The notes: generated from the sequence alone by a model not told the origin. Shown: positions 41,951 to 57,635, numbered from the stretch's first letter. The stretch: DNA of 57,635 bases from Candidatus Phoenicimicrobium oleiphilum (GCA_039638295.1 JBDIWJ010000006.1:1-57635); one strand, 5' to 3'. A program made the numbers and translations.

Positions 41951-42105
41951 ATTAGTCGTTAGTGAATAGTGAATAGTCGTTAGTATATGGTATAGCGCAT
42001 TGCCTATCAAGTATCGCGTATATAGTTACCCAGTTATCCCGTTTGCCAGTTAAACAGTTAATTTTAATTCTTAAAACCGGTAAACCAGTTAACTGGCTAA
42101 CTACC
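41951..42105. repeat. Degenerate short tandem repeat tract
   Basis: TAGTCGT TAGTGAA TAGTGAA TAGTCGT TAGT; GTTACCCA GTTATCCC GTTTGCCA GTTAAACA GTTAA; a reverse-oriented AAACCGGTAAACCAGTTAACTGGCTAACT tract. Confidence 0.55.
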
Positions 42106-42178
42106 TTAAAGAGATACGAATCATAGTTTACAGGAAAGGAAATTTCTATATATTTAAAATAAATGAAAAGAGAAAAAA

Positions 42179-43429
42179 ATGCCAGTAATTAAACCATTCA
42201 AAGCTTTAAGACCACAACCAAATTTAATAGCTAAAGTAGCATCACCTCCCTATGATGTTATAAGTACAGAAGGAGCACGAAAATTAGCAAAAGATAATCC
42301 TGTTTCTTTTTTACATATTAATAAAGCTGAGATAGATTTAGAACCCTCTTTAGACCATTATGATCGGAGGGTCTACGAAAAAGCCAGAGAGAATCTTAAT
42401 AGAATGATAAAGGAAAAGATTTTTCTGCAAGATAAACAGGAGAGTATTTATATCTACCGACAAGTAATGAAAGGAAGAGCACAGACTGGGTTAGTTGTTT
42501 GTACTTCTATAGATGATTATCTTAAAGGTAGAATTAAAAAACATGAGGACACTCGGGCAGACAAAGAAGAGGACCGAGTAAATCATATTGATTTTACTGA
42601 TGCTAATACTGGCCCTGTCTTCCTTACTTATAAAGCAAAAGATAAAATAAAGCAGATTATAAGAAGTTGGGCTAAAGAAAAAGATTCAGTATATGACTTT
42701 ACCTCAGATGATAGAATTACTCACACTTGCTGGGTAATCGATGACCAACAAGTAATTAAAAGCTTGATAGAAGCCTTTACTGAAATTGATTATCTTTATA
42801 TCGCTGATGGTCATCATCGAGCAGCGGCAGCTGCTAAGGTAGGATTAAAAAGAAGAGAACAACTGAAAAATTATACCGGAAAAGAAGAGTTTAATTATTT
42901 TCTATCAGTTATATTTCCTAATGATGAGCTATATATTATGGACTATAATCGGGTAGTAGCTGATTTAGCAGGAAATTCTGAAGAAGAATTTATCCAGAAA
43001 ATATCTGAAAAATTTATAGTAGAAAAGTATAGCGGAGGAGACCCTTACCGACCATTAGCAAGCCATACCTTTGGTATGTACTTAAATAACTGCTGGTTTA
43101 AACTGACTGCAAAACTGGGGTCTTTTGACGAAGATGATGTAGTAGAAAGCCTCGATGTATCGATATTACAAAATAATCTGCTTGACCCTATTTTAGGAAT
43201 TAAAGATCCTCGGACAGACCAGAGAATAGAATTTGTAGGAGGAATCAGAGGTCTGGAGGAATTAGAGAAAAAAGTGAAGGCAGGGATGAAAGTAGCCTTT
43301 TCACTCTACCCTACTTCCATAAAAGAATTAATGGCAGTTGCCGATGCAGGAAGATTAATGCCTCCCAAGTCGACCTGGTTTGAACCGAAATTACGCAGTG
43401 GTATCTTTGTTCATAAACTATCTGAATAG
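42179..43429 (+). CDS. DUF1015 family protein (ParB/Srx-like fold)
   Basis: ASPPYDV, IKKHE.TR, YIADGHHR and MPPKSTWFEPKLRSG. Confidence 0.88.
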   Translation: MPVIKPFKALRPQPNLIAKVASPPYDVISTEGARKLAKDNPVSFLHINKAEIDLEPSLDHYDRRVYEKARENLNRMIKEKIFLQDKQESIYIYRQVMKGRAQTGLVVCTSIDDYLKGRIKKHEDTRADKEEDRVNHIDFTDANTGPVFLTYKAKDKIKQIIRSWAKEKDSVYDFTSDDRITHTCWVIDDQQVIKSLIEAFTEIDYLYIADGHHRAAAAAKVGLKRREQLKNYTGKEEFNYFLSVIFPNDELYIMDYNRVVADLAGNSEEEFIQKISEKFIVEKYSGGDPYRPLASHTFGMYLNNCWFKLTAKLGSFDEDDVVESLDVSILQNNLLDPILGIKDPRTDQRIEFVGGIRGLEELEKKVKAGMKVAFSLYPTSIKELMAVADAGRLMPPKSTWFEPKLRSGIFVHKLSE

Positions 43430-43791
43430 AATAAACAACAAATCCTATAAAAAGAAAACAATTTACAACTAAGAATCTTATGCAGGATAGGAATAAAAAG
43501 AATATCCTTGACTGCCATAAAACCTTCAAAAACCATTCTATGTTCTTCTGTGTTTTACATTCTTTATTTCCCCAAAAAACATTTCTTTATTTTTATTATA
43601 TAGATAAAAAAAGCAAACACTATAACAATGGTTTAAAAAAAAGTAAGATAAGTTCAACCATTCCCGTAAAGTTATATCATTTATTTTTATAATAGCATAC
43701 TCTACTACAAAATTACGAAAGGCGATTAAAATAAGGTTTTACAGGGTTTTATCAAAAAATAAGAAAAAATTAAAAATTTTTCAAAAAAAGA

Positions 43792-43847
43792 TTGATTTTT
43801 TAAATAAATGTAGTATATAATATATAAAAATGTGAACAGCGTTCTTA
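43792..43847 (+). promoter_or_regulatory. Promoter and operator copy 1 (TGTGAAC-AGC-GTTCTTA)
   Basis: TTGATT (43792-43797), 18 bp, TATAAT (43816-43821); palindrome at 43831-43847, also found at 50563 and 51511. Confidence 0.7.
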
Positions 43848-43904
43848 TTAAAGTTTCAAAATTTGAAAATCGCAAGAAATAAGTAATAACAGGGAGGATA
43901 AGAA

Positions 43905-45878
43905 ATGAAGTTACTTTCACCAATTAAAATTGGTAATTTAGAAATTAAAAATAGAGTAGTTATGGCACCAATGACTTGCAATTTTGCTAAAGATGGGTTT
44001 ATTACTGAGCAGATGATTGATTTTTATGCAGAGCGAGCAAGAGGAGGAGTAGGTGTAATTACAGTCGAAGATGGTATAATTGATTTTCCCTTAGGAAATA
44101 ATGCCAAAAACCCTGTAGCCATTGATGATGATAAATATATACCTATGCTTAAAAAACTTAGTTCAGCTATAAAAAAACATGGTGCTAAAGCAGCGATTCA
44201 ACTGTCTCATGCGGGGAGAAGAGCAGGTCGTGTAACTTTAGAAAATGGCTATTTAGAAGTAACTCGTGGTCAAATACCAGTTGCACCTTCAATGATCGCC
44301 CATCCCTTCCCCGGACAAGTTACCCCCAGAGAGCTAAGCGAAGAAGAGATTGAAGAGATTATAGAAAAATTTGGCCAGGCGGCGAGGAGGGCAGTTGAGG
44401 CTGGATTTGATATTATAAGTATACATTGTGCCCATATGTATTTATGTGGTGAATTTTTATCCCCTTGGGCTAATAAACGAAAGGATAAGTATGGGGGGAG
44501 TTTAGAAAATCGTATGCGGTTTGTTTTAGAAATTATTAGAAAAGTAAAAAGTTTAGTAGGTTCAGACTTTCCTTTAGTTGCTCGTATGAATGGCCAGGAA
44601 CCTGAGGGTGGAAATTCACCTTTAGAGATTCGGGAAATTGCAAGAAGACTGCAATTAGCAGGAATTAAAGCTATTAGTGTTTCTACTGGGTTTGGGGCTG
44701 TTCTCCACGAAAAAAATTTTATTTCAGCAGAAGCACCGATAGGTACTCCCGAGGGATGCATTGTTAATTTAGCAGAAAATATTAAAATAGGAGTAACAAT
44801 ACCAGTAGCAGTAGGAAATAAAATTCGCCATCCAGAGTTTGCAGAAAATGTCTTGCAAAAAAATCAAGCAGATATGATTACTTTGGGTAGGCCTTTAATT
44901 ACTGACCCTTATTGGGTTCAAAAAGTTGCCGAAGGTAGATATCAGGATATTCGACCTTGTGTTTCCTGTTGTTATGGTTGTGTAGGAAATGTGCTTAAAG
45001 GTACACCAATTACCTGTATTTTAAACCCGTTAGCAGGAAAGGAAGGTAAAAAAGAATTTAGGTATGTACCCGTAAATAAGAGGGATGGAAAGAAAGTTTT
45101 AGTAATTGGTGGTGGTCCTGCAGGGCTACAAGCAGCTATTACCGCGGCGACTAGAGGACATAAAGTTACTCTATGGGAAAAGGAAAGAAAATTAGGTGGA
45201 ACAATTGTATTAGCTGCTAAGCCTCCCCGCAAACAAGAGTTAAATGAAATTGTTGATTATTTTAAAAATAGGATTAATCAATTAAATATACAGGTAGAAT
45301 TAGGAAAAGAAGTAAACGAAAAAATGATTAAAGAATTTAAAGCAGATGTGATTATTTTAGCCTCGGGTGGCAATAGGATTATACCAGATATTAAAGGAAT
45401 TAAGGGAAATAAGAATGTTTATTGGGCACTTGATTTACTCAAAAATGATTATACAGATATTGGGCAAGAAATAGTTATTGTTGGGGGAGGAGAAGTAGGA
45501 TTAGAAACTGCTGAATGGTTGGCGGAAAAAGGGAAAACGGTGACTGTTATTGAAATACTTCCTGAAGTGGCAAGAGATATGGTACACGCTGTTAAAGTTC
45601 CGCTAATGATAAGTTTAAAAGATTATGGGGTAAAGATATATACCAATACTCGTGTAAAGCAAATAAAGTCCGATGGTGTGATAATGGAAAGAAATGGGAT
45701 AGAAGAAACGATCAAGGCAGATGCAGTTGTTATTGCTGTGGGAGTGAAGGCTGAAGATAAATTGGAGAATAGATTAAGGGGTGCTGTATCAAAATTGTTC
45801 TGTGTGGGGGATTGCCAAAAACCTGGCAATATTATGGATGCGGTACATGAGGGATTTAAAATAGGATTACAAGTTTAA
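43905..45878 (+). CDS. NADH:flavin oxidoreductase, OYE family with 4Fe-4S and FAD domains (enoate/dienoyl-CoA reductase-like)
   Basis: NRVVMAPM, QLSHAGR, HCAHMYL, NKRKDKYGGS, CVSCCYGC...C, GGGPAG and GGGEVG. Confidence 0.9.
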   Translation: MKLLSPIKIGNLEIKNRVVMAPMTCNFAKDGFITEQMIDFYAERARGGVGVITVEDGIIDFPLGNNAKNPVAIDDDKYIPMLKKLSSAIKKHGAKAAIQLSHAGRRAGRVTLENGYLEVTRGQIPVAPSMIAHPFPGQVTPRELSEEEIEEIIEKFGQAARRAVEAGFDIISIHCAHMYLCGEFLSPWANKRKDKYGGSLENRMRFVLEIIRKVKSLVGSDFPLVARMNGQEPEGGNSPLEIREIARRLQLAGIKAISVSTGFGAVLHEKNFISAEAPIGTPEGCIVNLAENIKIGVTIPVAVGNKIRHPEFAENVLQKNQADMITLGRPLITDPYWVQKVAEGRYQDIRPCVSCCYGCVGNVLKGTPITCILNPLAGKEGKKEFRYVPVNKRDGKKVLVIGGGPAGLQAAITAATRGHKVTLWEKERKLGGTIVLAAKPPRKQELNEIVDYFKNRINQLNIQVELGKEVNEKMIKEFKADVIILASGGNRIIPDIKGIKGNKNVYWALDLLKNDYTDIGQEIVIVGGGEVGLETAEWLAEKGKTVTVIEILPEVARDMVHAVKVPLMISLKDYGVKIYTNTRVKQIKSDGVIMERNGIEETIKADAVVIAVGVKAEDKLENRLRGAVSKLFCVGDCQKPGNIMDAVHEGFKIGLQV

Positions 45879-45906
45879 ATTTTAATAAGATGGCGGTGAA
45901 AATAAT

Positions 45907-47895
45907 TTGAATATATTTAAAAAGAAGAAAAAAAATATTGATTTGCAAAGTGAAGAGGTAATCAAGAGGCCGCTTGCAGGCAACCTTAAGAAATTAGTAA
46001 CAGTTTTGGCTATCAGTCTTTCTTTATTTCAATTATATACGGCTGCTTTTGGTATTTATAAGACTGCCATTATTCATCGGGCGGCACATTTAATTTTTAT
46101 TTTAGTTTTGTTCTTCATAATTTATCCAATAAGCAAGAAAAATCATCAAAATAAAATAGGAGATATAATTGACTATCTTCTTGTCTTTATCTCCTTGTTT
46201 TCTGTTGGGTATATAGTATTTTTTTATGAAGCAGTAGCTAATAGAGTAATGAACCTGGAAAATTTAACAAAATTAGATAATTTTGTGGGGATTATTGTTA
46301 TATTATTAGTATTAGAGGCAAACAGGCGTTCAAATCGTACTTTCTTTTTTCTTATGCTCCTTGGTTTAGCGTATATGTTGTTTGGTCCATATTTTCCAGG
46401 ACTTTTTGCCCATCCAGGGATTTCTTGGGAACGATTAATCTATTTAATATCATATTCTTCAGAGGGAATTTTTGGTATTGGTTTAGCAGTATCTTCAACT
46501 TACCTATATATTTTTATATTGTTTGGCGTATTTTTGGGAAAGACTGGGGTAATAGATTTCTTTATCGATTTAGCCCTTTCATTAGTGGGTAAGTACTCAG
46601 GTGGGATGGCAAAGTCTTGCGTGATTAGTAGTTCTTTGATGGGGACTATAACAGGTAGTTCTCTTGGTAGCGCAGCAGCCGTAGGTTCCTTTACAATTCC
46701 GATGATGAAAAAAGAAGGATTTAAAAGCCATGTGGCTGCTGCAATAGAGGCAATTTCAGCCTGCGGGGGGCAATTAATGCCACCAGTTATGGGAGCAGCA
46801 GCTTTTATTATGGCTGAGATAATTGGGGTCCCATATGGGAAGATAGCTTTAGCTGGATTGATCCCGGCAGTTATATATTACATAAATGTCTTTTCAATAA
46901 TTCATTTTGAGTCACTTAGTAGTGGTATAAAAGGTCTAAATAAGAATAAATTACCAAAATTTAAAGATGTAGTTTTATCTTCAGGGTATTTATTATTACC
47001 TCTATTGGTATTAATTTATACATTGATGATCGCAGGTTATAGTGCTACAAAATCTGGTTTTATAGCCATAATTTGTTGTATTATAGTTACTTACTTTCGA
47101 AAGGAAAATCACTTTGGCTGGAAAAATTTCTTGCAAAGTTGTGAAGAAGGCGCTTATTCTGTTCTGAAAATTGCTATATTATGTGCAGGGATTGGCTTAA
47201 TTATTAGCTCGGTTACCTTAACTGGATTAGGTATGCGTTTTTCAAGTATTGCGATAGCCTTAGCTGGGGGGAATCTATTTTTACTATTATTTATTACGAT
47301 GATTATGAGTTTGATTTTAGGTATGGGTATGCCTACTCCTATTGTGTATTTATTAACAGCTATTTTTATTGCTCCTTCAATGATGCAATTGGGCGTTTCA
47401 GCATTTGCTGCACACTTTTTTGTCTTTTATTACGCTATATTATCGGGGTTAACGCCACCAGTTTGTTTGGTTGCGATTACAACTGCTGCCATAGCAAAAG
47501 CAGATTGGTTTAAGACAGGTTTAACAGCAACTCGTTTTGCTTTGGCTGTTTTTATTGCTCCGTATATATGGATTTTTAACCCTCAATTATTAATGGTGGG
47601 CAGTTGGTATGAAATATTATTGGTTTTCATGCTTGCAACAATGGGAGTTATTGCAATTGCAAGTAGCTTACAAGGGTGGTTTATAAACAAAACAAGCTGG
47701 ATAGAAAGAATAATTCTATTTATAGCCGGTCTTTTGGTAATGAATCTAAAAGGGGGGTGGTTAATGGTTATAAGCGGATTATTATTAGTATTCATTGTGG
47801 TGATTTACCAGTTAAAGAATATTAAATTTAAAATGAATGTTAGGGGGGATAAGAATAGGGAGTATAGTACACAAAATATAGAAGATTGTAATTAA
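45907..47895 (+). CDS. TAXI-TRAP transporter fused permease (4TM/12TM)
   Basis: GGQLMPPVMGAAAFIMA, LILGMGMPT and TPPV motifs; about 16 hydrophobic helices. Confidence 0.9.
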   Translation: MNIFKKKKKNIDLQSEEVIKRPLAGNLKKLVTVLAISLSLFQLYTAAFGIYKTAIIHRAAHLIFILVLFFIIYPISKKNHQNKIGDIIDYLLVFISLFSVGYIVFFYEAVANRVMNLENLTKLDNFVGIIVILLVLEANRRSNRTFFFLMLLGLAYMLFGPYFPGLFAHPGISWERLIYLISYSSEGIFGIGLAVSSTYLYIFILFGVFLGKTGVIDFFIDLALSLVGKYSGGMAKSCVISSSLMGTITGSSLGSAAAVGSFTIPMMKKEGFKSHVAAAIEAISACGGQLMPPVMGAAAFIMAEIIGVPYGKIALAGLIPAVIYYINVFSIIHFESLSSGIKGLNKNKLPKFKDVVLSSGYLLLPLLVLIYTLMIAGYSATKSGFIAIICCIIVTYFRKENHFGWKNFLQSCEEGAYSVLKIAILCAGIGLIISSVTLTGLGMRFSSIAIALAGGNLFLLLFITMIMSLILGMGMPTPIVYLLTAIFIAPSMMQLGVSAFAAHFFVFYYAILSGLTPPVCLVAITTAAIAKADWFKTGLTATRFALAVFIAPYIWIFNPQLLMVGSWYEILLVFMLATMGVIAIASSLQGWFINKTSWIERIILFIAGLLVMNLKGGWLMVISGLLLVFIVVIYQLKNIKFKMNVRGDKNREYSTQNIEDCN

Positions 47896-47981
47896 GTATT
47901 AAAATAAAAAAATGTTTAAATTGATAATATTTATTAAGTTTAACTACAGCAATTAATATTAATAAAAAAGAGGTATAAAAA

Positions 47982-48944
47982 ATGAAAATTAAAGTAAAAA
48001 TCTTAAAACCGTTTTTGATAGGCTTACTTTTTTTTACTATAGTAGCTTGTAGTTTTAATATTCAGGTAAAAGCTGAAGGTATTATGTGGACGTTAGGTAC
48101 ATCTGGTTCCGGATCTTCTCCTTATATTATGGGGGGGGTTTTTTCTGACGTAGCAAATAAACATTTAGACGGCTTGAAAATTTTCCCTCAAGTTACAGAA
48201 GGTTTTGAGGCGAATATAGGTTTAATCGCTAACCAAACAATACCTATTGCTGAAGCAAGTAATAATGTTGTAATTAAAGGTTATGCTAAATATCCTGATA
48301 TTCGGGGTTTATTCAACTTTCTAATGTGTCCCATACACATTTTAGTAAATGCTAAAGATAATTTTAATAGCATTGAAGATTTAAGGGGAAAGAGAATAAA
48401 TATAGGAGCTCCAGGCCAGTCTACCAGAGGGATTGCCACAGCTATGTTAGAAGCCTATGGGTTAGAATCTGGTGACTATAAAATATCATCTTTGAGTACC
48501 AAAGAATCTGCTGATGCTTTAAAAGATGGGCAAATCGATGCAGCTGTTATTATTGCCAATACACCAATGCCGAGCATTGCTTCGGTTGCGGTTACTAAAA
48601 GTATAGATTTATTGCCATTAGATGGACCAAATGCCGATAAGTTTAATGAGGCTATGGGATTCATAATGGCGCCTACCTCAATTCCTGCCGGCACTTATAA
48701 AGGTGTAGATAAAACTGTAAAAACATTAGCTTTCCCAATTATGATTATTGCCCATAAAGATTTAGACGTTGAACTTGTTTACCAATTTACTAAATCTGTT
48801 TGGGATAACTTAAATGAGCTAAAAGCGGCACACAATGGTTTTAATTCATTAGAGTTAGCCGGAAGTGCTATTGCGGGATGGGGAAATGTTCCTATACATC
48901 CCGGCGCAGAGAAATATTTCAAAGAAGTTGGAGTAATAAAATAA
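47982..48944 (+). CDS. TAXI-family TRAP substrate-binding protein
   Basis: Signal peptide; GTSGSGSS, DLRGKRINIG, ALKDGQIDA, IPAGTY and PIHPGAEKYFKE. Confidence 0.9.
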   Translation: MKIKVKILKPFLIGLLFFTIVACSFNIQVKAEGIMWTLGTSGSGSSPYIMGGVFSDVANKHLDGLKIFPQVTEGFEANIGLIANQTIPIAEASNNVVIKGYAKYPDIRGLFNFLMCPIHILVNAKDNFNSIEDLRGKRINIGAPGQSTRGIATAMLEAYGLESGDYKISSLSTKESADALKDGQIDAAVIIANTPMPSIASVAVTKSIDLLPLDGPNADKFNEAMGFIMAPTSIPAGTYKGVDKTVKTLAFPIMIIAHKDLDVELVYQFTKSVWDNLNELKAAHNGFNSLELAGSAIAGWGNVPIHPGAEKYFKEVGVIK

Positions 48945-48992
48945 AAATTAAAATTAATAGTTTGAAATTTAATTAAAGGGAAGATTTTTTTT

Positions 48993-49046
48993 TGGGAGAA
49001 AAAGGGGTATTAATGAGGTATTAATCTATAATCCCCTTTTCTCCCA
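48993..49046 (+). terminator. Stem-loop after the TAXI binding-protein gene
   Basis: TGGGAGAAAAAGGGG ... CCCCTTTTCTCCCA. Confidence 0.6.
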
Positions 49047-49118
49047 GAGATACATATTTGTTAGCAAAAATGTTTTTTTATTATAAAAAGGTTTAATGAA
49101 AAAAAGGGGGTAATTACA

Positions 49119-49748
49119 ATGAAAATTGTAGGCATAGTATGCACACCGAGAGTCGGTGGAAATTCAGAGGTTTTAGTAAAACAAATTTTGGATGGGGCAA
49201 CAAAAGCCGGAGCAGAGAGCGAAGTTATCTTCGTTAGAGATAAAAAAATACAACTTTGCGATGGGTGCATGAAGTGTATAAAATCTGGAAAATGTCACTT
49301 AACTGATGATATGGAAGAGATTGGCGAAAAATTGGTAACTTCTGATGGCATAGTTATCGGAGTTCCTACTTATTGGACCATTGGTGGTATGGGGGTTGCT
49401 TTTTTGGATAGGTTGTTACCTTATACTGCTTCTGGAATACTATCTAACAAGGTAGGAGCAGGAATTGCAGTAGGTGCAAGAGTGGCGGTGGATACAGCAG
49501 TTGGGGTTTTGCGGCGCTTTTTCATATATTCTCATATGTTATGTGTCGAATGTGTTGCTCACTATGGTACTATACCCGGTGATGTAATTAAAAATGAATA
49601 TGCAATGAAATCTGTATGGGAAATAGGTCGTTTAATGGTATTATTTAAGGAGAATGGTAACAGATATCCGGAAGAATATTCAATTCCTCTATCTAATTAT
49701 GTTAAGAAAAAATACAGTGATGACATTTATCCTTATCATTCTTCCTAA
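49119..49748 (+). CDS. Iron-sulfur flavoprotein (Isf)-like flavodoxin-fold protein 1
   Basis: TPR..GNS, CxxCxxC-x5-C (CDGCMKCIKSGKC), DGIVIGVPTY and NKVGAGIAV. Confidence 0.82.
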   Translation: MKIVGIVCTPRVGGNSEVLVKQILDGATKAGAESEVIFVRDKKIQLCDGCMKCIKSGKCHLTDDMEEIGEKLVTSDGIVIGVPTYWTIGGMGVAFLDRLLPYTASGILSNKVGAGIAVGARVAVDTAVGVLRRFFIYSHMLCVECVAHYGTIPGDVIKNEYAMKSVWEIGRLMVLFKENGNRYPEEYSIPLSNYVKKKYSDDIYPYHSS

Positions 49749-49783
49749 ATTATTATCTTTTTTATAGAAACAGAGGAGGGAAT

Positions 49784-50416
49784 ATGTCTATTAATGTTAT
49801 AGCTATTGCAGGTAGTCATCGTAAGAATAGTAACACAGAGTTAGCTTTACAGATTATGTCTAAAAGATTATCCAAGATTGATATTGAGACTGAAATAATA
49901 ACTCTGGCTAACAAAAAGATTGAACATTGTCGGGCCTGTGATAATTGTAAAAGAACAAGGAAATGTCCTATTAATGATAACCTTGTGGAAATTATGGAGA
50001 AGATGATAACTGCTCAGGGAATTATCTTGGCCTGCCCCATATATAGTTTTAATATCACCCCCTTAATGCAAGACTTAATAACCCGGGGTAACCGATATTT
50101 TCATATCCTAGCTAAATCTGTCATTAAAGATGATTTTAATAATCCCGGTTTTACCTATAAAAATATCCCATATTCAGCTTTAAAAGGTAAAGTAGGAGCA
50201 GCCATAACTGTTGCACGTCGGGCAGGAGGTGGTATGGCTTTGTGGAATTTGAATAATTTTATGTTGGTTAATGAGATGCAAGTTGTGGGCTCTTGTTATG
50301 AGAATACAATTTTTGGAAACGAAAGAGGAGCAATAATAAAAGATATTGAGGGGATGAATAATCTTTATAGATTAACTGATAACTTTGGAATACTTTTGAA
50401 AAGATTATTTAGTTAA
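49784..50416 (+). CDS. Iron-sulfur flavoprotein (Isf)-like flavodoxin-fold protein 2
   Basis: GSHRKNSNT, CRACDNCKRTRKC, GIILACPIY and GKVGAAITVARRAGG. Confidence 0.82.
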   Translation: MSINVIAIAGSHRKNSNTELALQIMSKRLSKIDIETEIITLANKKIEHCRACDNCKRTRKCPINDNLVEIMEKMITAQGIILACPIYSFNITPLMQDLITRGNRYFHILAKSVIKDDFNNPGFTYKNIPYSALKGKVGAAITVARRAGGGMALWNLNNFMLVNEMQVVGSCYENTIFGNERGAIIKDIEGMNNLYRLTDNFGILLKRLFS

Positions 50417-50529
50417 AATTTGCATGAATAATGAATAATAACAATTTTAAAATGGAAAGGATTTAGGATGTAATTATTTTTGTTCAGTGAAAAAATATTT
50501 TACCCAAGTAAAAAAAATAAAAATGTTAT

Positions 50530-50579
50530 TTGACAAATAAAATTGTTTTTGTTAAAATATAATGTGAAAGGTGTTCACA
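50530..50579 (+). promoter_or_regulatory. IclR gene promoter and operator copy 2 (TGTGAAA-GGT-GTTCACA)
   Basis: TTGACA (50530-50535), 17 bp, TG-n-TAAAAT (50553-50558); palindrome 50563-50579 covers the expected +1. Confidence 0.78.
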
Positions 50580-50596
50580 AATAAAGGATTTAAAAA

Positions 50597-51358
50597 ATGA
50601 CTGAAAAAAGGAAAAATATTAATATAAGGCGAGTAGCGCAAGTATTAAAATGTTTTACTCAAAAACCAAATGGCTGGGGGATAACTGAACTTGCCTCTCA
50701 TTTAGGATTAGCAAAAAGTGTAATTTTTGAAATTTTAAATACCTTATGTGAAGAAGGTTTACTAGAAAAAGACAAAGATAAAAAAATATATCTTTGTGGA
50801 GATGAACTATTAAAACTTGCCTTAGCCCATTATGGTAATGTAGATTTAGTCAAAGTTAGTAGGCCAGTATTAAAAAACTTAGCTAAAGAAGTAGGAGAAA
50901 CAGTAATATTATCTCAAATAATTGATAATAGAAATATAATTATAGAAAAAGTTGATGGACCACAACCCCTCCGTTTTACCTTAGATATTGGGACAGAATT
51001 GCCGTTAGATAAAGGATCTTCAGCAAGGATATTTTTAGCTTTTTTACCAGATGAGAAGAAAAAAGAGGTAATAGATAAATATAAAATAGATATGAGCAAA
51101 TTAAAAGAGGAGTTGGAAATAGTAAGAAAGAGAGGATTTGCCATCAGCAAAGAAGAAGTGTATCCTGGGGTAAATGCTATATCTGTTCCAATCTTAAATA
51201 ATTATAATGAATTAGTAGCAGTCCTGGGTGTAGGTGGGCCGAACATTCGTTATAATAAAGAAAATGAACAAGGTAAATATAAATTAATATCAAAAATATT
51301 AGCTGCTGGTGAAAAAATTTCTGCCCAAATAGGGTTTTTAAAGTGGGAATGGTCGTAA
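50597..51358 (+). CDS. IclR-family transcriptional regulator
   Basis: GITELASHLGLAKS..F.IL.TL HTH, GETV, and RKRGFAIS.EE...G..AISVPI effector domain. Confidence 0.92.
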   Translation: MTEKRKNINIRRVAQVLKCFTQKPNGWGITELASHLGLAKSVIFEILNTLCEEGLLEKDKDKKIYLCGDELLKLALAHYGNVDLVKVSRPVLKNLAKEVGETVILSQIIDNRNIIIEKVDGPQPLRFTLDIGTELPLDKGSSARIFLAFLPDEKKKEVIDKYKIDMSKLKEELEIVRKRGFAISKEEVYPGVNAISVPILNNYNELVAVLGVGGPNIRYNKENEQGKYKLISKILAAGEKISAQIGFLKWEWS

Positions 51359-51380
51359 TGGATTATTATGCCAAATTAAT

Positions 51381-51428
51381 GAAACTCCTCGCAGCAGAGC
51401 TGCGGGGAATGAACCCTAAGAGATTCAA
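51381..51428. repeat. GC-rich hairpin resembling an IS200/IS605-type end or MITE scar
   Basis: GAAAC-TCCTCGCAGC-AGA-GCTGCGGGGA-AT in an otherwise AT-rich spacer. Confidence 0.45.
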
Positions 51429-51510
51429 TAGATAAATGACTAAATGACTAATTGTGCAACAAATTAATATAAAAAAGTTAAAAAGTTTGTTATTTTTTTT
51501 AAGATGACGA

Positions 51511-51527
51511 TGTGAACGTTGTTTACA
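51511..51527 (+). promoter_or_regulatory. Operator copy 3 (TGTGAAC-GTT-GTTTACA) upstream of the glycyl-radical operon
   Basis: Matches the palindromes at 43831 and 50563; ~50 bp upstream of the activase ATG. Confidence 0.72.
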
Positions 51528-51576
51528 AAAATGATATTTGCAATATTTGATAAATAAATGTAATGAGGAGTAACAA

Positions 51577-52515
51577 ATGCTTAAAATTCCTTTAATTACT
51601 GAAATACAGAGGTACTGTGCTAATGATGGTCCCGGAATAAGAACCGTAATATTTTTTAAAGGTTGTAGTCTAAATTGCCCCTGGTGTCATAATCCTGAAT
51701 GCAAATCCCCAAAAGTAGATATTTACTACCATGAAGATAAGTGCCAACATTGTGGAAGGTGTATTGAAAATTGTCCTCAAGGAGCAATAAGTTGGAGGTC
51801 CCCCAAAAAAGAAGCTATTTTAATAGATAAAGAAAAATGTAATAAATGTCTAAAGTGTGTCGAAGGCTGTCCGTTTAAAGCCTTAGAAAAAGTAGGACAA
51901 GCTTTGGCTTTTGAGCAAATTGTTGATGAAGCACTAAGAGACAAACCTTTTTATGAAACCTCAAATGGCGGAGTCACCCTAAGCGGGGGCGATCCTTTAT
52001 TCTTCCCGGAATTTAGCCTTAAATTATTAAAGAAATTCAAAGCCGAAATGATCCATACCGCAGTAGAAACTTCTGGGTATAGTAAATGGGAAATTTTAAA
52101 GGAAATAACGAAATATACAGATTTATTCTTGTATGACCTAAAGTGTATGGATTCAATTAAACATAAAGATGTTATCGGGGTAGATAACAGACTGATTTTA
52201 GATAATCTAAAAAGATTGTCCGCTCTAAAAGCAAATATCAGGATTAGAGTCCCGGTTATTCCCAGATTTAATGATAATAAAGAAAATTTTAGTCTGATGG
52301 TTGATTATCTTCAAGCCCTTCAAAATCCGACAATAGCAGTCGATCTTTTGCCTTTCCACAATTCTGCAGAGAAGAAATACACCCAATTAGGTTTAAATTA
52401 TATCTATAGAGGTGAACCATTTATGGAAAAGGAACAGGTAGAGTGGATTGAGAATTTTTTGGAAAAGAATAATATTACCACTACTATTGGTGGGCTTATT
52501 GGCGTCGAAAAGTAA
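51577..52515 (+). CDS. Glycyl-radical enzyme activating enzyme (BssD-like radical SAM protein with ferredoxin insert)
   Basis: KIPLITEIQRY..NDGPGIRT, CxxxCxxC (CSLNCPWC), two CxxCxxCxxxC motifs, GVTLSGGDP and a BssD-like C-terminus TTIGGLIG. Confidence 0.93.
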   Translation: MLKIPLITEIQRYCANDGPGIRTVIFFKGCSLNCPWCHNPECKSPKVDIYYHEDKCQHCGRCIENCPQGAISWRSPKKEAILIDKEKCNKCLKCVEGCPFKALEKVGQALAFEQIVDEALRDKPFYETSNGGVTLSGGDPLFFPEFSLKLLKKFKAEMIHTAVETSGYSKWEILKEITKYTDLFLYDLKCMDSIKHKDVIGVDNRLILDNLKRLSALKANIRIRVPVIPRFNDNKENFSLMVDYLQALQNPTIAVDLLPFHNSAEKKYTQLGLNYIYRGEPFMEKEQVEWIENFLEKNNITTTIGGLIGVEK

Positions 52516-52551
52516 AGAAAAAAGAGTAATAAAAAGTAAGGAGGTGGGGAG

Positions 52552-52725
52552 ATGGCTGTTTGCAAAGAATGTAAAAATTTTAAACCATTAAAACAGAGTG
52601 ATTTGGATTATGCGAAAGGTAAAGGTGATTGTTTTTTACCTCAACAGGATGAAAAATGCAAATATTGGACAGCAAAACCAGTTAAGGAAGATATGACAGC
52701 ATGTGATAGATTTGAGAAAAAGTGA
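52552..52725 (+). CDS. Fumarate-adding enzyme gamma subunit (BssC-like, 57 aa; not in the ORF track)
   Basis: Strong SD AAGGAGGTG. MAVCKECKNFKPLKQSDLDYAKGKGDCFLPQQDEKCKYWTAKPVKEDMTACDRFEKK matches the BssC pattern CxxC..F.P....DY..GK.DC....DEK.KYW..KP.......C..F. Confidence 0.88.
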   Translation: MAVCKECKNFKPLKQSDLDYAKGKGDCFLPQQDEKCKYWTAKPVKEDMTACDRFEKK

Positions 52726-52777
52726 TTTAGTTCTATAAAATGTTTATTAACAAAAAATAGGAGGTTAAGAGGTTAAA

Positions 52778-55249
52778 ATGAAAAATATCACAGAAAAAGA
52801 TAAACAAGATGAATTGATTAAACCGATGACTGAGCGAGCAAGAAAATTAAAAGATACTCTCTGGTGGAAGCATACCAGAGGAGGAGAATACGTCGAAAAG
52901 GGAGTTAAGGCAGGAATAGAAAGAGCCAGATATATGACCCAATCTTTTAAAGAGACCGATGGTGAAGAGTGGGTAATAAGAAGAGCGAAAGCCCTGGCTA
53001 ATGTGTTAGATAATATGACTATCTTTATAAAGGACCACGAGCTGTTAGTGGGTGATCATGCTGAGAAGCCCAACCTTATGCCCATCTATCAGGAAAGTAA
53101 CTATTTTTTAAATATTGATTTATTAAATAGTCCATATTGTCCTGATGAAAAAGAAGAATTTAGAGAAATTGCAGAATGGTGGAAGCCCCATACTATTCAA
53201 ACTAAAGCGGAAAAATATATCGACGAAGAGGAAAAAGAACTTCAGAGCGCTAATGCATCAATGGAATCCCCGGGCTATTTGACTGGTTATTCAAGTCCTA
53301 CTCCTTCTTACGAAAGTGTATTCGAAGATGGTTTAGAAGGTAGAATTGAGCGTATAGAGAAAAAACTAAAAGAAGCCCAAGATGAATTTCTACACCAAAA
53401 TCCCTGGAATGGACCGGAAGCTATGACTTTGCCCAAAAAGATGGATGAGTGGAAGGCAATGTTAATTGCCGATAAAGCCGTAATAAGATGGGCAAAAAGG
53501 TATGCCAGGTTAGCAAGATATATGGCTGAAGAAGAGAAAAATCCCAAAAGAAAAGAAGAACTTTTGATGATTGCTGATATATGTGACCATGTACCGGCAA
53601 AACCCTGTCGGGGTTTTAGAGATGCAGTGCAAGCCCAATGGTTTACCTATCTGATTGTTCAATCTTTAGAGCGTTATGGAAGTGGGATGTCCTGCAAGAT
53701 GGATACAATGTGGTGGCCCTATTATAAGAGAAGTGTTATAGATAAGGCAGAACAACCTATGACCAGAGAAGAAGCAGTAGAGCTGGTAGTTTTGCATAGA
53801 TTAAAAGTTTCAGAACATGGAGTTATAAAGAGTAGATTGTATAGGGAAATTCATGCTGGGGCAAACGACCTCTTTATTATTACTATCGGAGGCGTAGAAC
53901 CAGATGGCAGTAATGGTTGCAACGAGTTAACTAATGTTATATTAGAAGCAGCAGCAACTGCGATGACTACTGAGCCATCATTAGGACTTAGATGGCACGA
54001 AAATATGCCTGAGCTAACTGCTCGTTATGCCTATGAATGTATAAAAAGAGGACTGGGTTTCCCCTCAATTAAAAATGATGAAGTTGCAATCAATTCACTA
54101 GTACAGGGTTTTGGAAGTGGCACGCTTTCCATACAAGATGCCAGGAGATGGGCTTTGTGTTTATGTATGTCTCCGGGACCAACAGGAAGACATGGTGGTT
54201 TGAGAACGAGGTGGGCTTGTTCCTCTTATACTGGAAAGTGTCTAGAATTAGCTCTAAGTGATGGTTATGATTATTCTTACACCGATATGCAATTAGGACC
54301 AAAGACCGGAGATCCTACTAAGTTTAAAACCTTTGATGATTTACTGCAGGCTTACAAAATTCAATACCAATATGTTCATTCGGCAATTACCAGGTCCAGA
54401 GATCTAACCAGATATTTAGAAGCAAAGTTCTACCAATCTCCATTTTTATCCAGTCTTGATGATGAGTGTGTGGAGAGAGGTCTCGATGGTATTGAATGGG
54501 ACGAATTCTGTAATCCTTGGTTTAACGTAATGGATGATGTGGTAGTAGCAGACTCCTTAGCTGCGGTAAAAAAATTGGTCTTTGAAGAGAAGAAATATAC
54601 TATGGAACAGTTAGTAAAGGCTCTTCGGGCAAATTGGGAAGGTTATGAAGAGATGAGATTGGACTTTTGGAATGCGCCAAAATGGGGGAATGATGATGAT
54701 TACGTAGACGATGTAACAAAAAATTTATTTAGATATCATTCCCTTGAACTTCAACAGAATACCAATCTTTTTGGAGCTCATCCCAAACCACTTCCCCAAC
54801 ATGTAGCAATATATTGGACTTTAGGACCAAGGATTGGAGCAACTCCTAATGGAAGGAGACATGGAGAGGTATTAGATGATGGAGGAAGCTCACCATATAT
54901 TGGTTGTGACAAAAAGGGACCAACCGCGGTTTTAAATTCCTGCGCAAAGATCGACTATAGCTTGCAAAAGGGTTGTCTACTTAATCAAAAGTTAGATCAT
55001 AATGTGATGAACAGCGATAAAGGTTTTCCATTATGGTTTGCCTATATGAAAACCTGGCACAAGCTGGGTATAGATCATGTACAGTTTAACGTATGTGACC
55101 ATGAACAATTGAGAGATGCTCAAAAGCATCCGGAGAAATATCCGGATTTGATTGTTAGAGTTGCCGGTTATAGTGCAAGATTTATAGACCTTTCAGTATA
55201 TGCTCAAGATACTATCATTGCTCGGACAGAACAAGAATTAGCCGGATAA
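52778..55249 (+). CDS. Fumarate-adding glycyl-radical enzyme alpha subunit (BssA-like, divergent)
   Basis: Cys loop LCMSPG (Cys463), Gly loop RVAGYSA (Gly797), YREI..G.NDLF, IDHVQFN and IIARTEQ; flanked by an activase and small Cys-rich subunits. Confidence 0.9.
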   Translation: MKNITEKDKQDELIKPMTERARKLKDTLWWKHTRGGEYVEKGVKAGIERARYMTQSFKETDGEEWVIRRAKALANVLDNMTIFIKDHELLVGDHAEKPNLMPIYQESNYFLNIDLLNSPYCPDEKEEFREIAEWWKPHTIQTKAEKYIDEEEKELQSANASMESPGYLTGYSSPTPSYESVFEDGLEGRIERIEKKLKEAQDEFLHQNPWNGPEAMTLPKKMDEWKAMLIADKAVIRWAKRYARLARYMAEEEKNPKRKEELLMIADICDHVPAKPCRGFRDAVQAQWFTYLIVQSLERYGSGMSCKMDTMWWPYYKRSVIDKAEQPMTREEAVELVVLHRLKVSEHGVIKSRLYREIHAGANDLFIITIGGVEPDGSNGCNELTNVILEAAATAMTTEPSLGLRWHENMPELTARYAYECIKRGLGFPSIKNDEVAINSLVQGFGSGTLSIQDARRWALCLCMSPGPTGRHGGLRTRWACSSYTGKCLELALSDGYDYSYTDMQLGPKTGDPTKFKTFDDLLQAYKIQYQYVHSAITRSRDLTRYLEAKFYQSPFLSSLDDECVERGLDGIEWDEFCNPWFNVMDDVVVADSLAAVKKLVFEEKKYTMEQLVKALRANWEGYEEMRLDFWNAPKWGNDDDYVDDVTKNLFRYHSLELQQNTNLFGAHPKPLPQHVAIYWTLGPRIGATPNGRRHGEVLDDGGSSPYIGCDKKGPTAVLNSCAKIDYSLQKGCLLNQKLDHNVMNSDKGFPLWFAYMKTWHKLGIDHVQFNVCDHEQLRDAQKHPEKYPDLIVRVAGYSARFIDLSVYAQDTIIARTEQELAG

Positions 55250-55265
55250 CAAGAAAAGTTAAATA

Positions 55266-55310
55266 GTGAGATGATGGTTTTATTATAAAAATTAATAACC
55301 ATCATCTCAC
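55266..55310 (+). other. Strong intra-operon hairpin between the alpha and beta genes
   Basis: GTGAGATGATGGTT / AACCATCATCTCAC 14-bp perfect stem with no following U-tract. Confidence 0.7.
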
Positions 55311-55366
55311 ATGTGGAATTCAATTAAAATATGTAAAACTATAAAAAATTATTTACGGAGGAAAAT

Positions 55367-55585
55367 ATGGAAAATAAAGAGAAAACTTGTAAAGATTGTA
55401 AATATTTTATGGTTGCACCTACGAATCCTTTTAAAGGAACTTGCACAGTAAATAGAAAGAAATTACCAGATACCCAAGCTACCTCAACATTTATTCCTGG
55501 CAAGTTAATCAAAGGAGATAATCCGAAATGTGATAAGTTTGAGCCATCTAGCGGCTGGGAAGATAATATTACACAGACACTTTAA
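55367..55585 (+). CDS. Fumarate-adding enzyme beta subunit (BssB-like, 72 aa)
   Basis: SD GGAGG. CKDCKY...PTNP.KG.CT.NR...C..F matches the BssB pattern CxxCK....PT.P..G.CT.NR. Confidence 0.82.
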   Translation: MENKEKTCKDCKYFMVAPTNPFKGTCTVNRKKLPDTQATSTFIPGKLIKGDNPKCDKFEPSSGWEDNITQTL

Positions 55586-55625
55586 TTTGATGGGTTAAAT
55601 TAAAAAATAAGGAAAGGGGTAAAAA

Positions 55626-55805
55626 ATGGAAAATATATTTGATAAAATGGTTTGTAAAGATTGTGATTTATTTCAACCAGACGTTGAAGATAAGGAGAAG
55701 GGATATTGTTGGAAAATAATGTCTGTGAAGGATAAGAAAGTTGTTTCTGCAAATGATGGATGCCCATCATTCCGTCCCAAAATAGATTTTTTTGCTAAAA
55801 AATGA
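55626..55805 (+). CDS. Third small 4-Cys protein of the BssB/BssC type (59 aa; not in the ORF track)
   Basis: SD-like AAGGAAAGGGG. MENIFDKMVCKDCDLFQPDVEDKEKGYCWKIMSVKDKKVVSANDGCPSFRPKIDFFAKK shares CxxC..F...(K)G.C...C..F spacing with the two neighbouring subunits. Confidence 0.75.
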   Translation: MENIFDKMVCKDCDLFQPDVEDKEKGYCWKIMSVKDKKVVSANDGCPSFRPKIDFFAKK

Positions 55806-55809
55806 ACTA

Positions 55810-56038
55810 TAATTTTGTAGATGGTGCTCAGGGGGACTGCTCGAATTCTAGCGGTGCTGCCGTAATTAGCCGAATACTCAAATATACTTAAGACGTTCTT
55901 TATATATCTGTATAGTTTTTAGGTACTTATCTAATAAATCACTTGAAAATGGGTATATAAAAAATAAAAAAAGGGGGTGGTAAATTAGTTAATTATCAAA
56001 TATTGTTAATTTGTTAAGTAAAACAACATAGTGATTAA
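55810..56038 (+). repeat. Direct repeat copy 1: cyclase 3'-end remnant plus downstream leader
   Basis: 55810-55867 is almost identical to 57081-57137 (one extra G, one substitution); 55934-56038 is similar to 57226-57337. Confidence 0.88.
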
Positions 56039-56232
56039 TTGATTTAAAAAAATATTAAGGGAACTATACAAAATTATTGAAAATACTCAAAACATAATTA
56101 AAAGATCAGGTGCTTAGATAATATCTATAAATGAGCTAATAAATCAAACTAAATGCTAATTCGAGAAAAGAAATAAGAATGATATAGTGTTTGAAAAAGC
56201 TCAAAGTATTTTAATAGGGAAGGAGGTAAAAA

Positions 56233-57135
56233 ATGAGAATGAGGAAGATAATAACAAGCGGTTTGATATGCATGCTAATATGCCTTCTTATAATAGGCGT
56301 AGCTTTATGTACCTCTTCAGAAGCAAATTGGACGATAAAGTTAGGGGCTACGAATGTTATTGATTTGAGCTATCCACTTTACAAAAATAATGAAGGTATG
56401 AGCATGTCCGATGTTTATATTCCTCTCGATATTCGTGATGAGATTACATTGGGTAGTAAGACCATCCCTTTCCCCGCAACTGTAGATGACAATGGTTATC
56501 CAGTAAATGGTTTCTATGCTAGGGAGATATATGGAATGCTTGAAGGGCATGGTACGCATGTTGAGGCTTCTTCTCATGGTTTTGGAGAGCTTGGTCGTAA
56601 TATTGACGACTATCCTTTATCACGTTTTATCGGTCCTGCCGTGGTTATAAATATTGAAGCTAAAGCAGTAAAAAACCCAGATTATGAGATAACGGTTGAA
56701 GATCTTCGTGTGTGGGAGAAGAAATATGGGAAGATACCTGATGGTGCTTGCGTTATACTTTTCTCTGGAAGGGGTAAATATTGGGGAGACAAAGAAACTT
56801 ATTTTGGTATGGATGCAGAAGGGAAGGCCCATTACCCTGGTTTTTCAATAGAGGCGGCTAAATTTCTTGTGAAGGATCGACACATTAGTATGATGGCTAC
56901 AGATTGCCCGACAGCTGAAAGCGCTCTTCAAAAGAGGACTATCAAGACAGAGCGTGCGTTTGGATCAGCTCCTGTACGTGATATAGTGCAGTGTCCCCCC
57001 AATGATGTGATCATAATTGAGTATTTAGCTAATGTTGAGAAGCTTCCTGAAAGCGGGGCACTTATTATCGCCGCTCCAATTAATTTTGTAGATGGTGCTC
57101 AGGGGACTGCTCGAATTCTAGCGGTGCTGCCTTAA
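56233..57135 (+). CDS. Exported cyclase-family metal-dependent hydrolase (kynurenine formamidase / isatin hydrolase-like)
   Basis: Hydrophobic signal peptide; IDLSYP, variant motif EGHGTHVEASSH, IGPAVVI, HYPGFS.EAA.FL, IIEYLAN and ARILA. Confidence 0.82.
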   Translation: MRMRKIITSGLICMLICLLIIGVALCTSSEANWTIKLGATNVIDLSYPLYKNNEGMSMSDVYIPLDIRDEITLGSKTIPFPATVDDNGYPVNGFYAREIYGMLEGHGTHVEASSHGFGELGRNIDDYPLSRFIGPAVVINIEAKAVKNPDYEITVEDLRVWEKKYGKIPDGACVILFSGRGKYWGDKETYFGMDAEGKAHYPGFSIEAAKFLVKDRHISMMATDCPTAESALQKRTIKTERAFGSAPVRDIVQCPPNDVIIIEYLANVEKLPESGALIIAAPINFVDGAQGTARILAVLP

Positions 57136-57337
57136 TTTCCTAACAACCGCCAAGACCACTAAATAATAATTTAATATAATTAGGAGTTTATTTATATACC
57201 TACATAATTGTTAGATATTTTGGTGATAAATTACTTGATAGTGGGTGTATAAAAAAATAAAAGAAAAAAAGGGGGTTGGTAAATTGGTCAATTATCAAAT
57301 ATTGTTAATTTGTTAAGTAAAACAGCATAGTGATTAA
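57081..57337 (+). repeat. Direct repeat copy 2
   Basis: Pairs with 55810-56038. Confidence 0.88.
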
Positions 57338-57392
57338 CTAATTGCAAGTTTATAGTAAAATGGAAGAAAATGTTTAAGGAGGTTTAAAAAAA

Positions 57393-57635
57393 ATGATAAA
57401 AGTAAAAAAAATTAGTATTGTTTCTGTTTTAGTATTAGCTATTTGTCTTTTAGTTGGATCGGCTTTTGCTTTTGCTGCTGACAAGGTATATACCATAAGA
57501 TTTGCTCATGGTTTACCTGGTACTCATCATGTAGCTATAGAATATGCTAATTGGGCGAAGATGATAAAAGAAGAATCCAACGGGCGATTAAATGTGAAAA
57601 TATACCCAGGAGGACAGCTTTATACTGATACAAAC
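57393..57635 (+). CDS. TRAP transporter DctP substrate-binding protein, 3'-partial (not in the ORF track)
   Basis: SD AAGGAGG; signal peptide followed by IRFAH...H....WAKMIKEESNGRLNVKIYPGGQL, a typical DctP N-terminus; open to the window edge. Confidence 0.85.
   Translation, partial: MIKVKKISIVSVLVLAICLLVGSAFAFAADKVYTIRFAHGLPGTHHVAIEYANWAKMIKEESNGRLNVKIYPGGQLYTDTN

Follow-up and report, generated by a model that had tools for sequence, protein, structure and literature searches.

The stretch of DNA analyzed here (57,635 nucleotides; the window) is the complete contig C6 (JBDIWJ010000006.1) of the Candidatus Phoenicimicrobium oleiphilum genome GCA_039638295.1 (G000; 1.65 Mb, 83 contigs, 91% complete). 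From position 43,792 to its end it carries a gene island centered on a glycyl radical enzyme, and all open reading frames (ORFs) of 43.9 to 57.6 kb lie on the + strand. This island is the known fae cluster of oil-field Atribacterota of the JS1 class (Phoenicimicrobiia), published in 2019 and 2024. It is predicted to encode an X-succinate synthase of the benzylsuccinate synthase (BSS) type, made up of the catalytic subunit FaeA, the small subunits FaeC and FaeB, the activase FaeD, and a conserved third Cys4 protein. Based on the residues of the active site, we propose with moderate confidence that its substrate is most likely a methyl-aromatic compound (toluene, xylene, cresol) and not an n-alkane.

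Liu et al. (2019; PMC6776118) described faeDCAB in bssDCAB order together with faeE-G, a deep monophyletic clade, about 55% identity to a Desulfobacula protein, and an insertion of DctP, DctQ, and DctM “in all atribacterial FAE operons”; they proposed the import of exogenous fumarate and the degradation of n-alkanes. A 2024 paper in Microbiome (PMC11227167) presented the same phylogeny and named the class Phoenicimicrobiia. The original prediction had taken the island for a candidate new catabolic system; since these papers already report the cluster together with its phylogeny and the insertion of DctPQM (PMC6776118, PMC11227167), this claim fails. Indeed, the island belongs to the same clade as the published atribacterial faeDCAB, with the same gene order, DctPQM insertion, faeE-G, and deep monophyly, and no essential difference separates the two in the passages cited; the source genome adds an intact cyclase gene. 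The main-text passages of these accounts do not mention a 59-amino-acid (aa) protein, His385 or the pocket residues, a BSS-type signature, or fumAB neighbors (with no occurrence of fumarase, malate, or malic). Our analysis adds a BSS-type site with a clade-specific His, the exclusive co-occurrence of the enzyme with DctPQM and with a module formed by an OYE-family flavoenzyme and a TAXI-type TRAP transporter (OYE-TAXI), the third Cys4 protein, and the decay of the cyclase gene.

Subunits, active site, and phylogeny of the enzyme

The original prediction placed the genes for activase, gamma, alpha, and beta subunits in bssDCAB order, and this is the order in which they are encoded between 51.6 and 55.6 kb of the window:

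51577..52515, + strand: FaeD, glycyl-radical activating enzyme with a ferredoxin-like insert (Radical_SAM; two Fer4-type domains, Fer4 and Fer4_12)
52552..52725, + strand: FaeC, gamma subunit, 57 aa, four Cys (BssC_TutF, E 3.6e-17, full profile covered)
52778..55249, + strand: FaeA, catalytic alpha subunit, 823 aa (PFL-like, E 5.7e-156; Gly_radical, E 3.7e-31)
55367..55585, + strand: FaeB, beta subunit, 72 aa, four Cys (BssB_TutG, 31.6 bits, cut-off 25.6)
55626..55805, + strand: 59-aa Cys4 protein, conserved ORF directly after faeB

The island combines sequence features typical of fumarate-adding enzymes, namely, a glycyl-radical alpha subunit, a fumarate site, Cys4 beta and gamma subunits, and a two-cluster activase. 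FaeD scores 356 bits against TIGR02494, over the cut-off, and 319.5 bits against the BssD equivalog TIGR04003, under the cut-off of 496. Compared with solved glycyl radical enzymes, FaeA reaches 898 bits with TutD (4pkc), 574 bits with MasD (9o8u), and at most 374 bits with all others.

The active site of FaeA was read in BSS numbering through the TutD-like protein P0087 (whose positions run one lower than the BSS numbers), with residue lists taken from PMC4848970, PMC12358834, and PMC12583861; conservation was counted over 9 members of the Atribacterial clade and 102 other homologues. Gly797 and Cys463 of FaeA align with BSS Gly829 and Cys493. The fumarate site of BSS comprises Arg508, Tyr197, Ser199, Trp613, Asn615, and Gln707 (PMC4848970), and all six ligands are kept in FaeA, as Arg478, Tyr171, Ser173, Trp581, Asn583, and Gln674. 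Along with the Cys and the Gly, they are kept across the nine clade members, except for a change of Tyr197 to His in three of them and one gapped row, and Arg508 is present in every clade member and in all of the 102 other homologues. Five of the seven residues of the toluene pocket are also identical to those of BSS (FaeA Glu163, Ile358, Leu365, Leu462, and Val676, for BSS Glu189, Ile384, Leu391, Leu492, and Val709), while two are changed (Phe385 to His359 and Ile617 to Met585). According to the structural literature, Ile384 blocks the bottom of the BSS pocket, at the para position of toluene; this residue is kept in 9/9 clade members and is present in 26/102 others.

Five positions contrast BSS with MASS (189, 199, 615, 617, and 707), at which the MASS-type residues are Trp185, Tyr for Ser199, Thr for Asn615, Phe600, and Glu690 (PMC12358834). 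There, FaeA reads E, S, N, M, and Q, the TutD-like P0087 reads E, S, N, V, and Q, and the MasD-type P0119 reads W, Y, T, F, and E. FaeA is therefore of the BSS type at four of the five positions, carries Met at 617, and has the MASS residue at none. In a direct alignment with MasD, Glu163, Asn583, and Gln674 of FaeA pair with Trp, Thr, and Glu, respectively. Judged by these residues, the FaeA site is predicted to be of the BSS type and not of the MASS/MasD type, which would make the enzyme itself BSS type and counts against the published alkane assignment. Such a pocket would favor a small methyl-aromatic substrate.

Phylogeny places FaeA close to, and outside of, the aryl-type enzymes. A database search with the protein returned, among the matches listed, nine proteins at 81 to 92% identity and then none above 56%; one 90% cluster within the group at 54 to 56% includes the HbsA protein of Desulfobacula toluolica. 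Close relatives (about 88 to 92% identity) were found at three genome loci, all from Candidatus Atribacteria metagenome-assembled genomes (MAGs; UBA6251, UBA6794, and UBA4082), on which the 2019 paper was written (PMC6776118). In a tree of 47 rows (IQ-TREE, LG+C20) rooted on a second glycyl radical enzyme of the source genome, the Atribacterial FaeA clade (support 100) is sister (support 99) to a 36-row aryl-type group (support 100). The latter contains Hbs rows, a BssA-annotated “uncultured Desulfobacterium sp.” row, which we take to be a methylnaphthalene-type enzyme, a Desulfosarcina ovata row, and TutD-like rows. The MasD-type row falls outside, and FastTree with 113 rows gave the same picture of the topology. 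An approximately unbiased (AU) test rejected a single clade of the Atribacterial rows and the MasD-type row (p 0.003), for a group that was named after inspection of the tree and with one MasD-type row, on a long branch. The Atribacterial clade does not lie inside the BssA clade. The divergence that had been claimed for the enzyme is thus upheld, as its clade stands outside the characterized toluene and alkane clades; nesting within one of these had been named beforehand as a finding that would speak against a new system.

Among characterized systems, BssDCAB(EFG)/TutEFDG of Thauera aromatica (4pkc, 5bwe) shares with Fae the subunit set, the gene order, the Gly and Cys loops, all of the fumarate ligands, the pocket residues Glu189, Ile384, Leu391, Leu492, and Val709, and a BssE-like ATPase. 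In contrast, FaeA is 49% identical to the TutD-like P0087 and lies outside the BssA clade, it has His for Phe385, Met for Ile617, and a shortened loop behind Arg508, and the Fae gene set includes one more Cys4 protein, DctPQM within the operon, and an IclR regulator, with no bbs genes found. HbsA of D. toluolica (P0124) is the most similar named protein (55.6% identity) and has the same aryl-type fumarate site; however, it reads Gln189, Phe197, and Phe384 where FaeA has Glu, Tyr, and Ile, and it lies inside the aryl-type group, whereas the Atribacterial clade lies outside. MasCDEB (9o8u, PMC12358834), which likewise adds fumarate by means of a glycyl radical and has more than two accessory subunits, shares the Arg and the oxyanion-hole contacts to fumarate, but FaeA has none of its MASS residues Trp185, Tyr, Thr, Phe600, and Glu690.

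The small ORF after faeB may add a subunit to the enzyme. In all seven loci covering the region, faeB, the 59-aa ORF, and DctP follow faeA. The relatives of the 59-aa protein measure 59 to 63 aa, and their four Cys are invariant, in a CxxC...C...C pattern as in FaeB and FaeC. The protein matches Pfam HIPIP with an E of 0.002, under the cut-off, and hhalign relates it to FaeB and FaeC at an E of about 5e-4, equal to the level of FaeB versus FaeC. A database search returned 14 clusters, all with at least 69% identity, one of them a named Atribacteria hypothetical protein. The 59-aa protein may thus be a fourth, HiPIP-like small subunit of the enzyme (the third small Cys4 protein). MasE, by comparison, is rubredoxin-like (PMC12358834), unlike the 59-aa protein, whose Cys residues are spaced (CxxC...C...C) as in the HiPIP-like beta and gamma subunits.

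The fifth Atribacterota match to FaeA (L014, G076:C315) is a glycyl radical enzyme of 805 aa with 38% identity. It was dropped from the fumarate-adding enzymes because Arg508 is replaced by Asp; an apparent “stop” precedes its reading frame, which is intact over the 805 aa, and a FumA gene is on the same contig. The second glycyl radical enzyme of the source genome (L002, contig C12, 34124-38816; 36% identity) is PFL2/glycerol-dehydratase-like. The activase at that locus is 44% identical to FaeD, and the adjoining transposase-like gene shares 71% identity with the one found in place of OYE-TAXI in L005.

Neighboring genes and their co-occurrence with the enzyme

The window lacks bssE because it ends where its contig ends. 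It stops at a bare contig limit, and its last 99 nt are identical to the first 99 nt of another contig of this genome, C50, read as the reverse complement. The gene order across this junction is as follows:

57393..57635, + strand: DctP, island specific, 5' part (first 81 codons; DctP, E 1.5e-06), continuing on C50
Contig C50, past the window: rest of DctP, DctQ, DctM, 287-aa AAA_5/CbbQ_C ATPase (BssE-like)
Contig C50, after the BssE-like ATPase: 667-aa protein (weak VWA match, E 0.011), DUF4125 protein, PNPOx-like protein
Contig C50, after the PNPOx-like gene: FumA, FumB, malic enzyme

The BssE-, BssF-, and BssG-like genes are therefore located on C50, the contig adjoining the window, and the C50 gene order is repeated in L004, L005, L006, and L007 (5/5 loci extending that far). 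The statement that neither bssE nor bbs-type genes are in the window is literally true, and bbs-type CoA-transferase and crotonase genes were not found in the genome either; as to BssE, BssF, and BssG, it does not carry past the overlap with C50. A bssE gene just outside the window had been named beforehand as an observation that would speak against a new system, and it is present there.

We surveyed 86 Atribacterota species genomes for co-occurrence. The fae clade is present in four of them (G000, G035, G063, and G074). The DctP type of the island (at least 70% identity) occurs in all four fae-positive genomes and in none of the 82 fae-negative ones, the next match being at 33%. Orthologues of the OYE protein (at least 87% identity) are found in three fae-positive genomes (G000, G063, and G074) and in 0/82 others, where matches do not exceed 45%. 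The proposed association of transporter and OYE genes with the enzyme clade is thus borne out across genomes, for DctP (4/4 versus 0/82) and for OYE-TAXI (3/4 versus 0/82). As a fixed neighbor, OYE-TAXI does not hold, since it lies directly ahead of the Isf genes in just two of the four loci reaching that far. G035 (98% complete) is without it, and a transposase-like gene (weak rve matches) occupies that place. In G074, the OYE gene is on a separate contig, with a second IclR gene before it and the TAXI membrane gene after it, and this arrangement, with an IclR copy of its own, suggests a separate unit. From its distribution, OYE-TAXI appears to be an accessory module travelling with the fae island.

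FumA is found in 60/86 genomes. The trio of fumA, fumB, and malic enzyme genes follows the island in 5/5 loci reaching it, and the trio is also present in 7 of 10 loci of fae-negative relatives, with PNPOx or bssE never adjoining. In view of these control loci, the trio was downgraded from dedicated cargo of the island to adjacent housekeeping genes, possibly co-opted. As fae-negative relatives have the trio for housekeeping too, its place next to the island may be owed in part to chance, through the site of insertion. In G063 (L028, G063:C40), the order is dctM-PNPOx-fumA-fumB-bssE, which places fumAB inside the island. G074 (contigs C74 and C55), from another family, has two FumA copies, of which the island-linked one is 88% identical to FumA of the source genome versus 75% for the other, a value typical of its family. 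Moreover, the island proteins of L004 and L005 are 91 to 99% identical, yet their genomes are assigned to different families. Lateral transfer or mis-binning would explain these likenesses, the two being equal explanations for G074. The rearrangement in G063 and the second FumA of G074 keep some linkage between fumAB and the island. As to an empty insertion site, the 1 to 9 kb preceding fumA were compared for four fae-negative genomes and have no gene in common with the window.

Upstream genes, regulatory region, and cyclase

The remaining neighbors that the original prediction named (OYE, TAXI-TRAP, two Isf-like flavoproteins, IclR, and cyclase) are, like DctP, all present, each with a Pfam match, and a remnant of a cyclase gene lies among them:

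43905..45878, + strand: OYE-family Fe-S flavoenzyme (FadH/2-enoate reductase/BaiCD-like), 657 aa (Oxidored_FMN, E 2e-72; Pyr_redox_2, E 7.3e-37)
45907..47895, + strand: TAXI-type TRAP membrane protein (fused DctQM), 662 aa (DctM, E 1.8e-81)
47982..48944, + strand: TAXI-family TRAP solute-binding protein, 320 aa (NMT1_3, E 2e-56)
49119..49748, + strand: Isf-like iron-sulfur flavoprotein 1 (FMN_red, E 3.1e-20; CxxCxxCx5C motif)
49784..50416, + strand: Isf-like iron-sulfur flavoprotein 2 (FMN_red, E 1.8e-23; CxxCxxCx5C motif)
50597..51358, + strand: IclR-family regulator (IclR_C, E 4.6e-32; HTH_IclR, E 4.3e-13)
55811..55862, + strand: cyclase 3'-end remnant (tblastn with the cyclase, residues 284-300, two frames)
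56233..57135, + strand: cyclase-family (PF04199) hydrolase, predicted to be exported or membrane anchored (Cyclase, E 4.3e-30; hydrophobic N terminus)

Against the NCBIfam models for BaiCD and bilirubin reductase, the OYE protein scores 511 and 503 bits, both under the cut-off. Orthologues of the TAXI membrane gene (86 to 90% identity) adjoin the OYE gene in L003/L020 and L021. The TAXI binding protein scores 213 bits against TIGR02122 (cut-off, 84), and its closest solved relatives, 8s4j and 9ibo, reach 118 bits over residues 102-320 only; these structures are cited in papers on a glutamate-specific TAXI protein of Vibrio cholerae. For the TAXI protein as for DctP, the solved structures are too remote to put a name to the ligand. 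Ahead of IclR, Isf1 and Isf2 are each found in 4/4 loci reaching that far, Isf1 being shortened to 60 aa in L009, where an IclR fragment adjoins it. IclR itself is upstream of faeD in 6/6 loci reaching that far. In L004 (790-966) and L005 (6048-6224), a 59-aa fragment resembling the N-terminal helix-turn-helix part of IclR (64 to 68% identical) lies between the full IclR gene and faeD and may be a duplicated remnant.

The top-scoring promoter-like site of the region is at 50530-50558 (11/12 matches). Neither promoter-like sites (51 found versus 61 expected from shuffles) nor terminator-like sites (11 versus 8) are enriched in the region, a search of six intergenic regions found no common palindromic operator, and an Rfam scan of 42000-57635 gave no match at an E of 0.1 or below. 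Upstream of dctP (window 57255-57345), an alignment of eight sequences (A6) contains a conserved G-run, AAAAGGGGGTGGTAA, with L003 to L007 and L010 among the loci aligned, followed in most of the eight by a TTGTTA...TATAGT-like pair. This pattern suggests an internal promoter or operator for dctPQM.

The cyclase had been counted as an exported part of the island. It is present in the window, with a hydrophobic N terminus; it is intact there only, that is, in one of seven loci. Elsewhere remnants are found, of 26 aa in L010 (96% identical, with one stop) and of 16 aa in L007. In the window, a direct repeat of about 165 nt, corresponding to the dctP upstream region, flanks the intact gene (about 55880-56045 and 57172-57345). 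The repeat and the remnant read as a record of duplication followed by decay, and the cyclase as a decaying, lineage-specific passenger gene.

Substrate, co-substrate, and direction of the reaction

In the reading that we favor, FaeD would install the glycyl radical on Gly797 of FaeA, perhaps with electrons from the two conserved Isf flavoproteins. Cys463 would then take a hydrogen atom from the methyl group of a small, toluene-sized substrate, held in a pocket that would equal that of BSS save for the changes of Phe385 to His and Ile617 to Met, and the carbon radical would add to fumarate bound by Arg478, Tyr171, Ser173, Trp581, Asn583, and Gln674. The fumarate would come from import by DctPQM and/or from pyruvate via malic enzyme and fumarase.

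Several observations weigh against a methyl-aromatic substrate. PF02515 (CoA_transf_3), presumably the family of BbsEF, has no match in G000, G035, or G063, PF00378 (ECH) gives none over the cut-off in the four fae-positive genomes, and one acyl-CoA dehydrogenase each was found in G000 and G035, in agreement with the 2019 account (PMC6776118). Because no bbs-type pathway was found (G000 being 91% complete), an aromatic succinate adduct would have no visible fate. Within FaeA, the His at position 385 is shared by 9/9 clade members and 1/102 others, and the loop after Arg478 is two residues shorter in 9/9 clade members versus 0/102 others, reading R-W-A-(C/L/S) in the clade and R-(S/T)-E-G-G in the others; both features may affect the pocket. 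The presence of the fumAB-malic enzyme trio in fae-negative relatives weakens its tie to the enzyme, and the bounds of the AU test given above apply here. Finally, the 2024 paper, in the passages cited, reads the cluster as one for n-alkane degradation and states that its function has not been experimentally investigated (PMC11227167).

The original prediction had as substrate a (hetero)aromatic compound, polar and charged, with a methyl or methylene group, imported by TRAP systems (DctPQM and/or TAXI) and sensed by IclR. We consider this unlikely. The restriction of the island DctP type and of OYE-TAXI to fae-positive genomes is in line with it. So is the IclR regulator, which stands in the place of the two-component regulators of bss operons, and so is the failure to find bbs genes. 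DctP leaves room for such a ligand, as its closest solved relative scores just 107 bits, so that C4-dicarboxylate specificity is a matter of the family name only. The sole feature of the enzyme that speaks for a polar substrate is the clade-specific His385, which could contact a polar substituent, for instance by a hydrogen bond to a heteroatom. However, the remainder of the pocket is as hydrophobic as that of the toluene enzyme (Ile384, Leu391, Leu492, and Val709, plus Glu189). Since it is almost the pocket of toluene-specific BSS, nothing requires a charged substrate, and the carboxylate that a TRAP ligand requires is already offered by the co-substrate fumarate, whose import, as in the published reading, explains the transporter equally well. 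Moreover, OYE-TAXI is absent from the nearly complete G035, where a transposase-like gene takes its place, and comes with its own IclR copy in G074, and the cyclase is decaying.

Quite improbable, to our mind, is the published assignment as an alkylsuccinate synthase that activates n-alkanes with fumarate imported by DctPQM. In its favor, assK-, mcm-, and pcc-like genes were reported in fae-positive MAGs, with no aromatic downstream pathway in the passages cited (PMC6776118), the clade is labeled “Atribacterial AssA” in a figure legend (PMC10766756), and fae transcripts were present in enrichments with hexadecane, eicosane, or triacontane (PMC11227167). The inoculum of all these enrichments, however, was oily sludge (PMC11227167), and beta-oxidation genes are largely absent, both in the 2019 account (PMC6776118) and in the genomes searched here. 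The enzyme itself argues against alkanes. FaeA scores far higher with TutD than with MasD (898 versus 574 bits), it follows BSS at four of the five contrasting positions and MASS at none, Ile384 at the bottom of the toluene pocket is kept in 9/9 clade members, and a grouping with the MasD-type row fails the AU test. FaeB, furthermore, matches the BssB Pfam family, whereas MasB and MasE are without similarity to BSS subunits (PMC12358834).

The reverse use of the enzyme, as an X-succinate lyase that would cleave aryl- or alkylsuccinates, imported by DctPQM from neighboring hydrocarbon degraders, into hydrocarbon and fumarate for fermentation via fumarase, malic enzyme, and acetate kinase, would account for the lack of a visible pathway for the adduct and for an island-exclusive dicarboxylate importer whose genes form one string with those of fumAB and malic enzyme and, in L016 and L017, also of acetate kinase; it is nevertheless highly improbable, because the forward BSS reaction is modeled at about -7.7 kcal/mol (PMC4848970), making cleavage uphill in hydrocarbon-saturated habitats, the fumAB-malic enzyme genes are housekeeping in fae-negative relatives, and no lyase use of the fumarate-adding enzyme family turned up in the literature searched.

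Part of 47900-57635 of the window is present in 20 of 24 listed sequencing runs from 10 studies, mostly oil-field, crude-oil, and oil-facility metagenomes (shares below 0.2 were excluded as evidence). Three RNA libraries contained 0.99 (a crude-oil run), 0.61, and 0.48 of the sampled words of this segment, values that indicate presence in RNA-library contigs only, neither level nor strand. Expression of the FAE genes in situ, in an oil reservoir, is reported in the 2024 paper (PMC11227167).

JS1 Atribacterota are among the commonest bacteria in oil reservoirs and subsurface sediments. To our knowledge, the fae cluster is the only ground on which some of them are regarded as degraders of hydrocarbons. 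Were its BSS-type enzyme shown by assay to act on an aromatic compound, or on an unexpected one, models of carbon flow in these communities would change.

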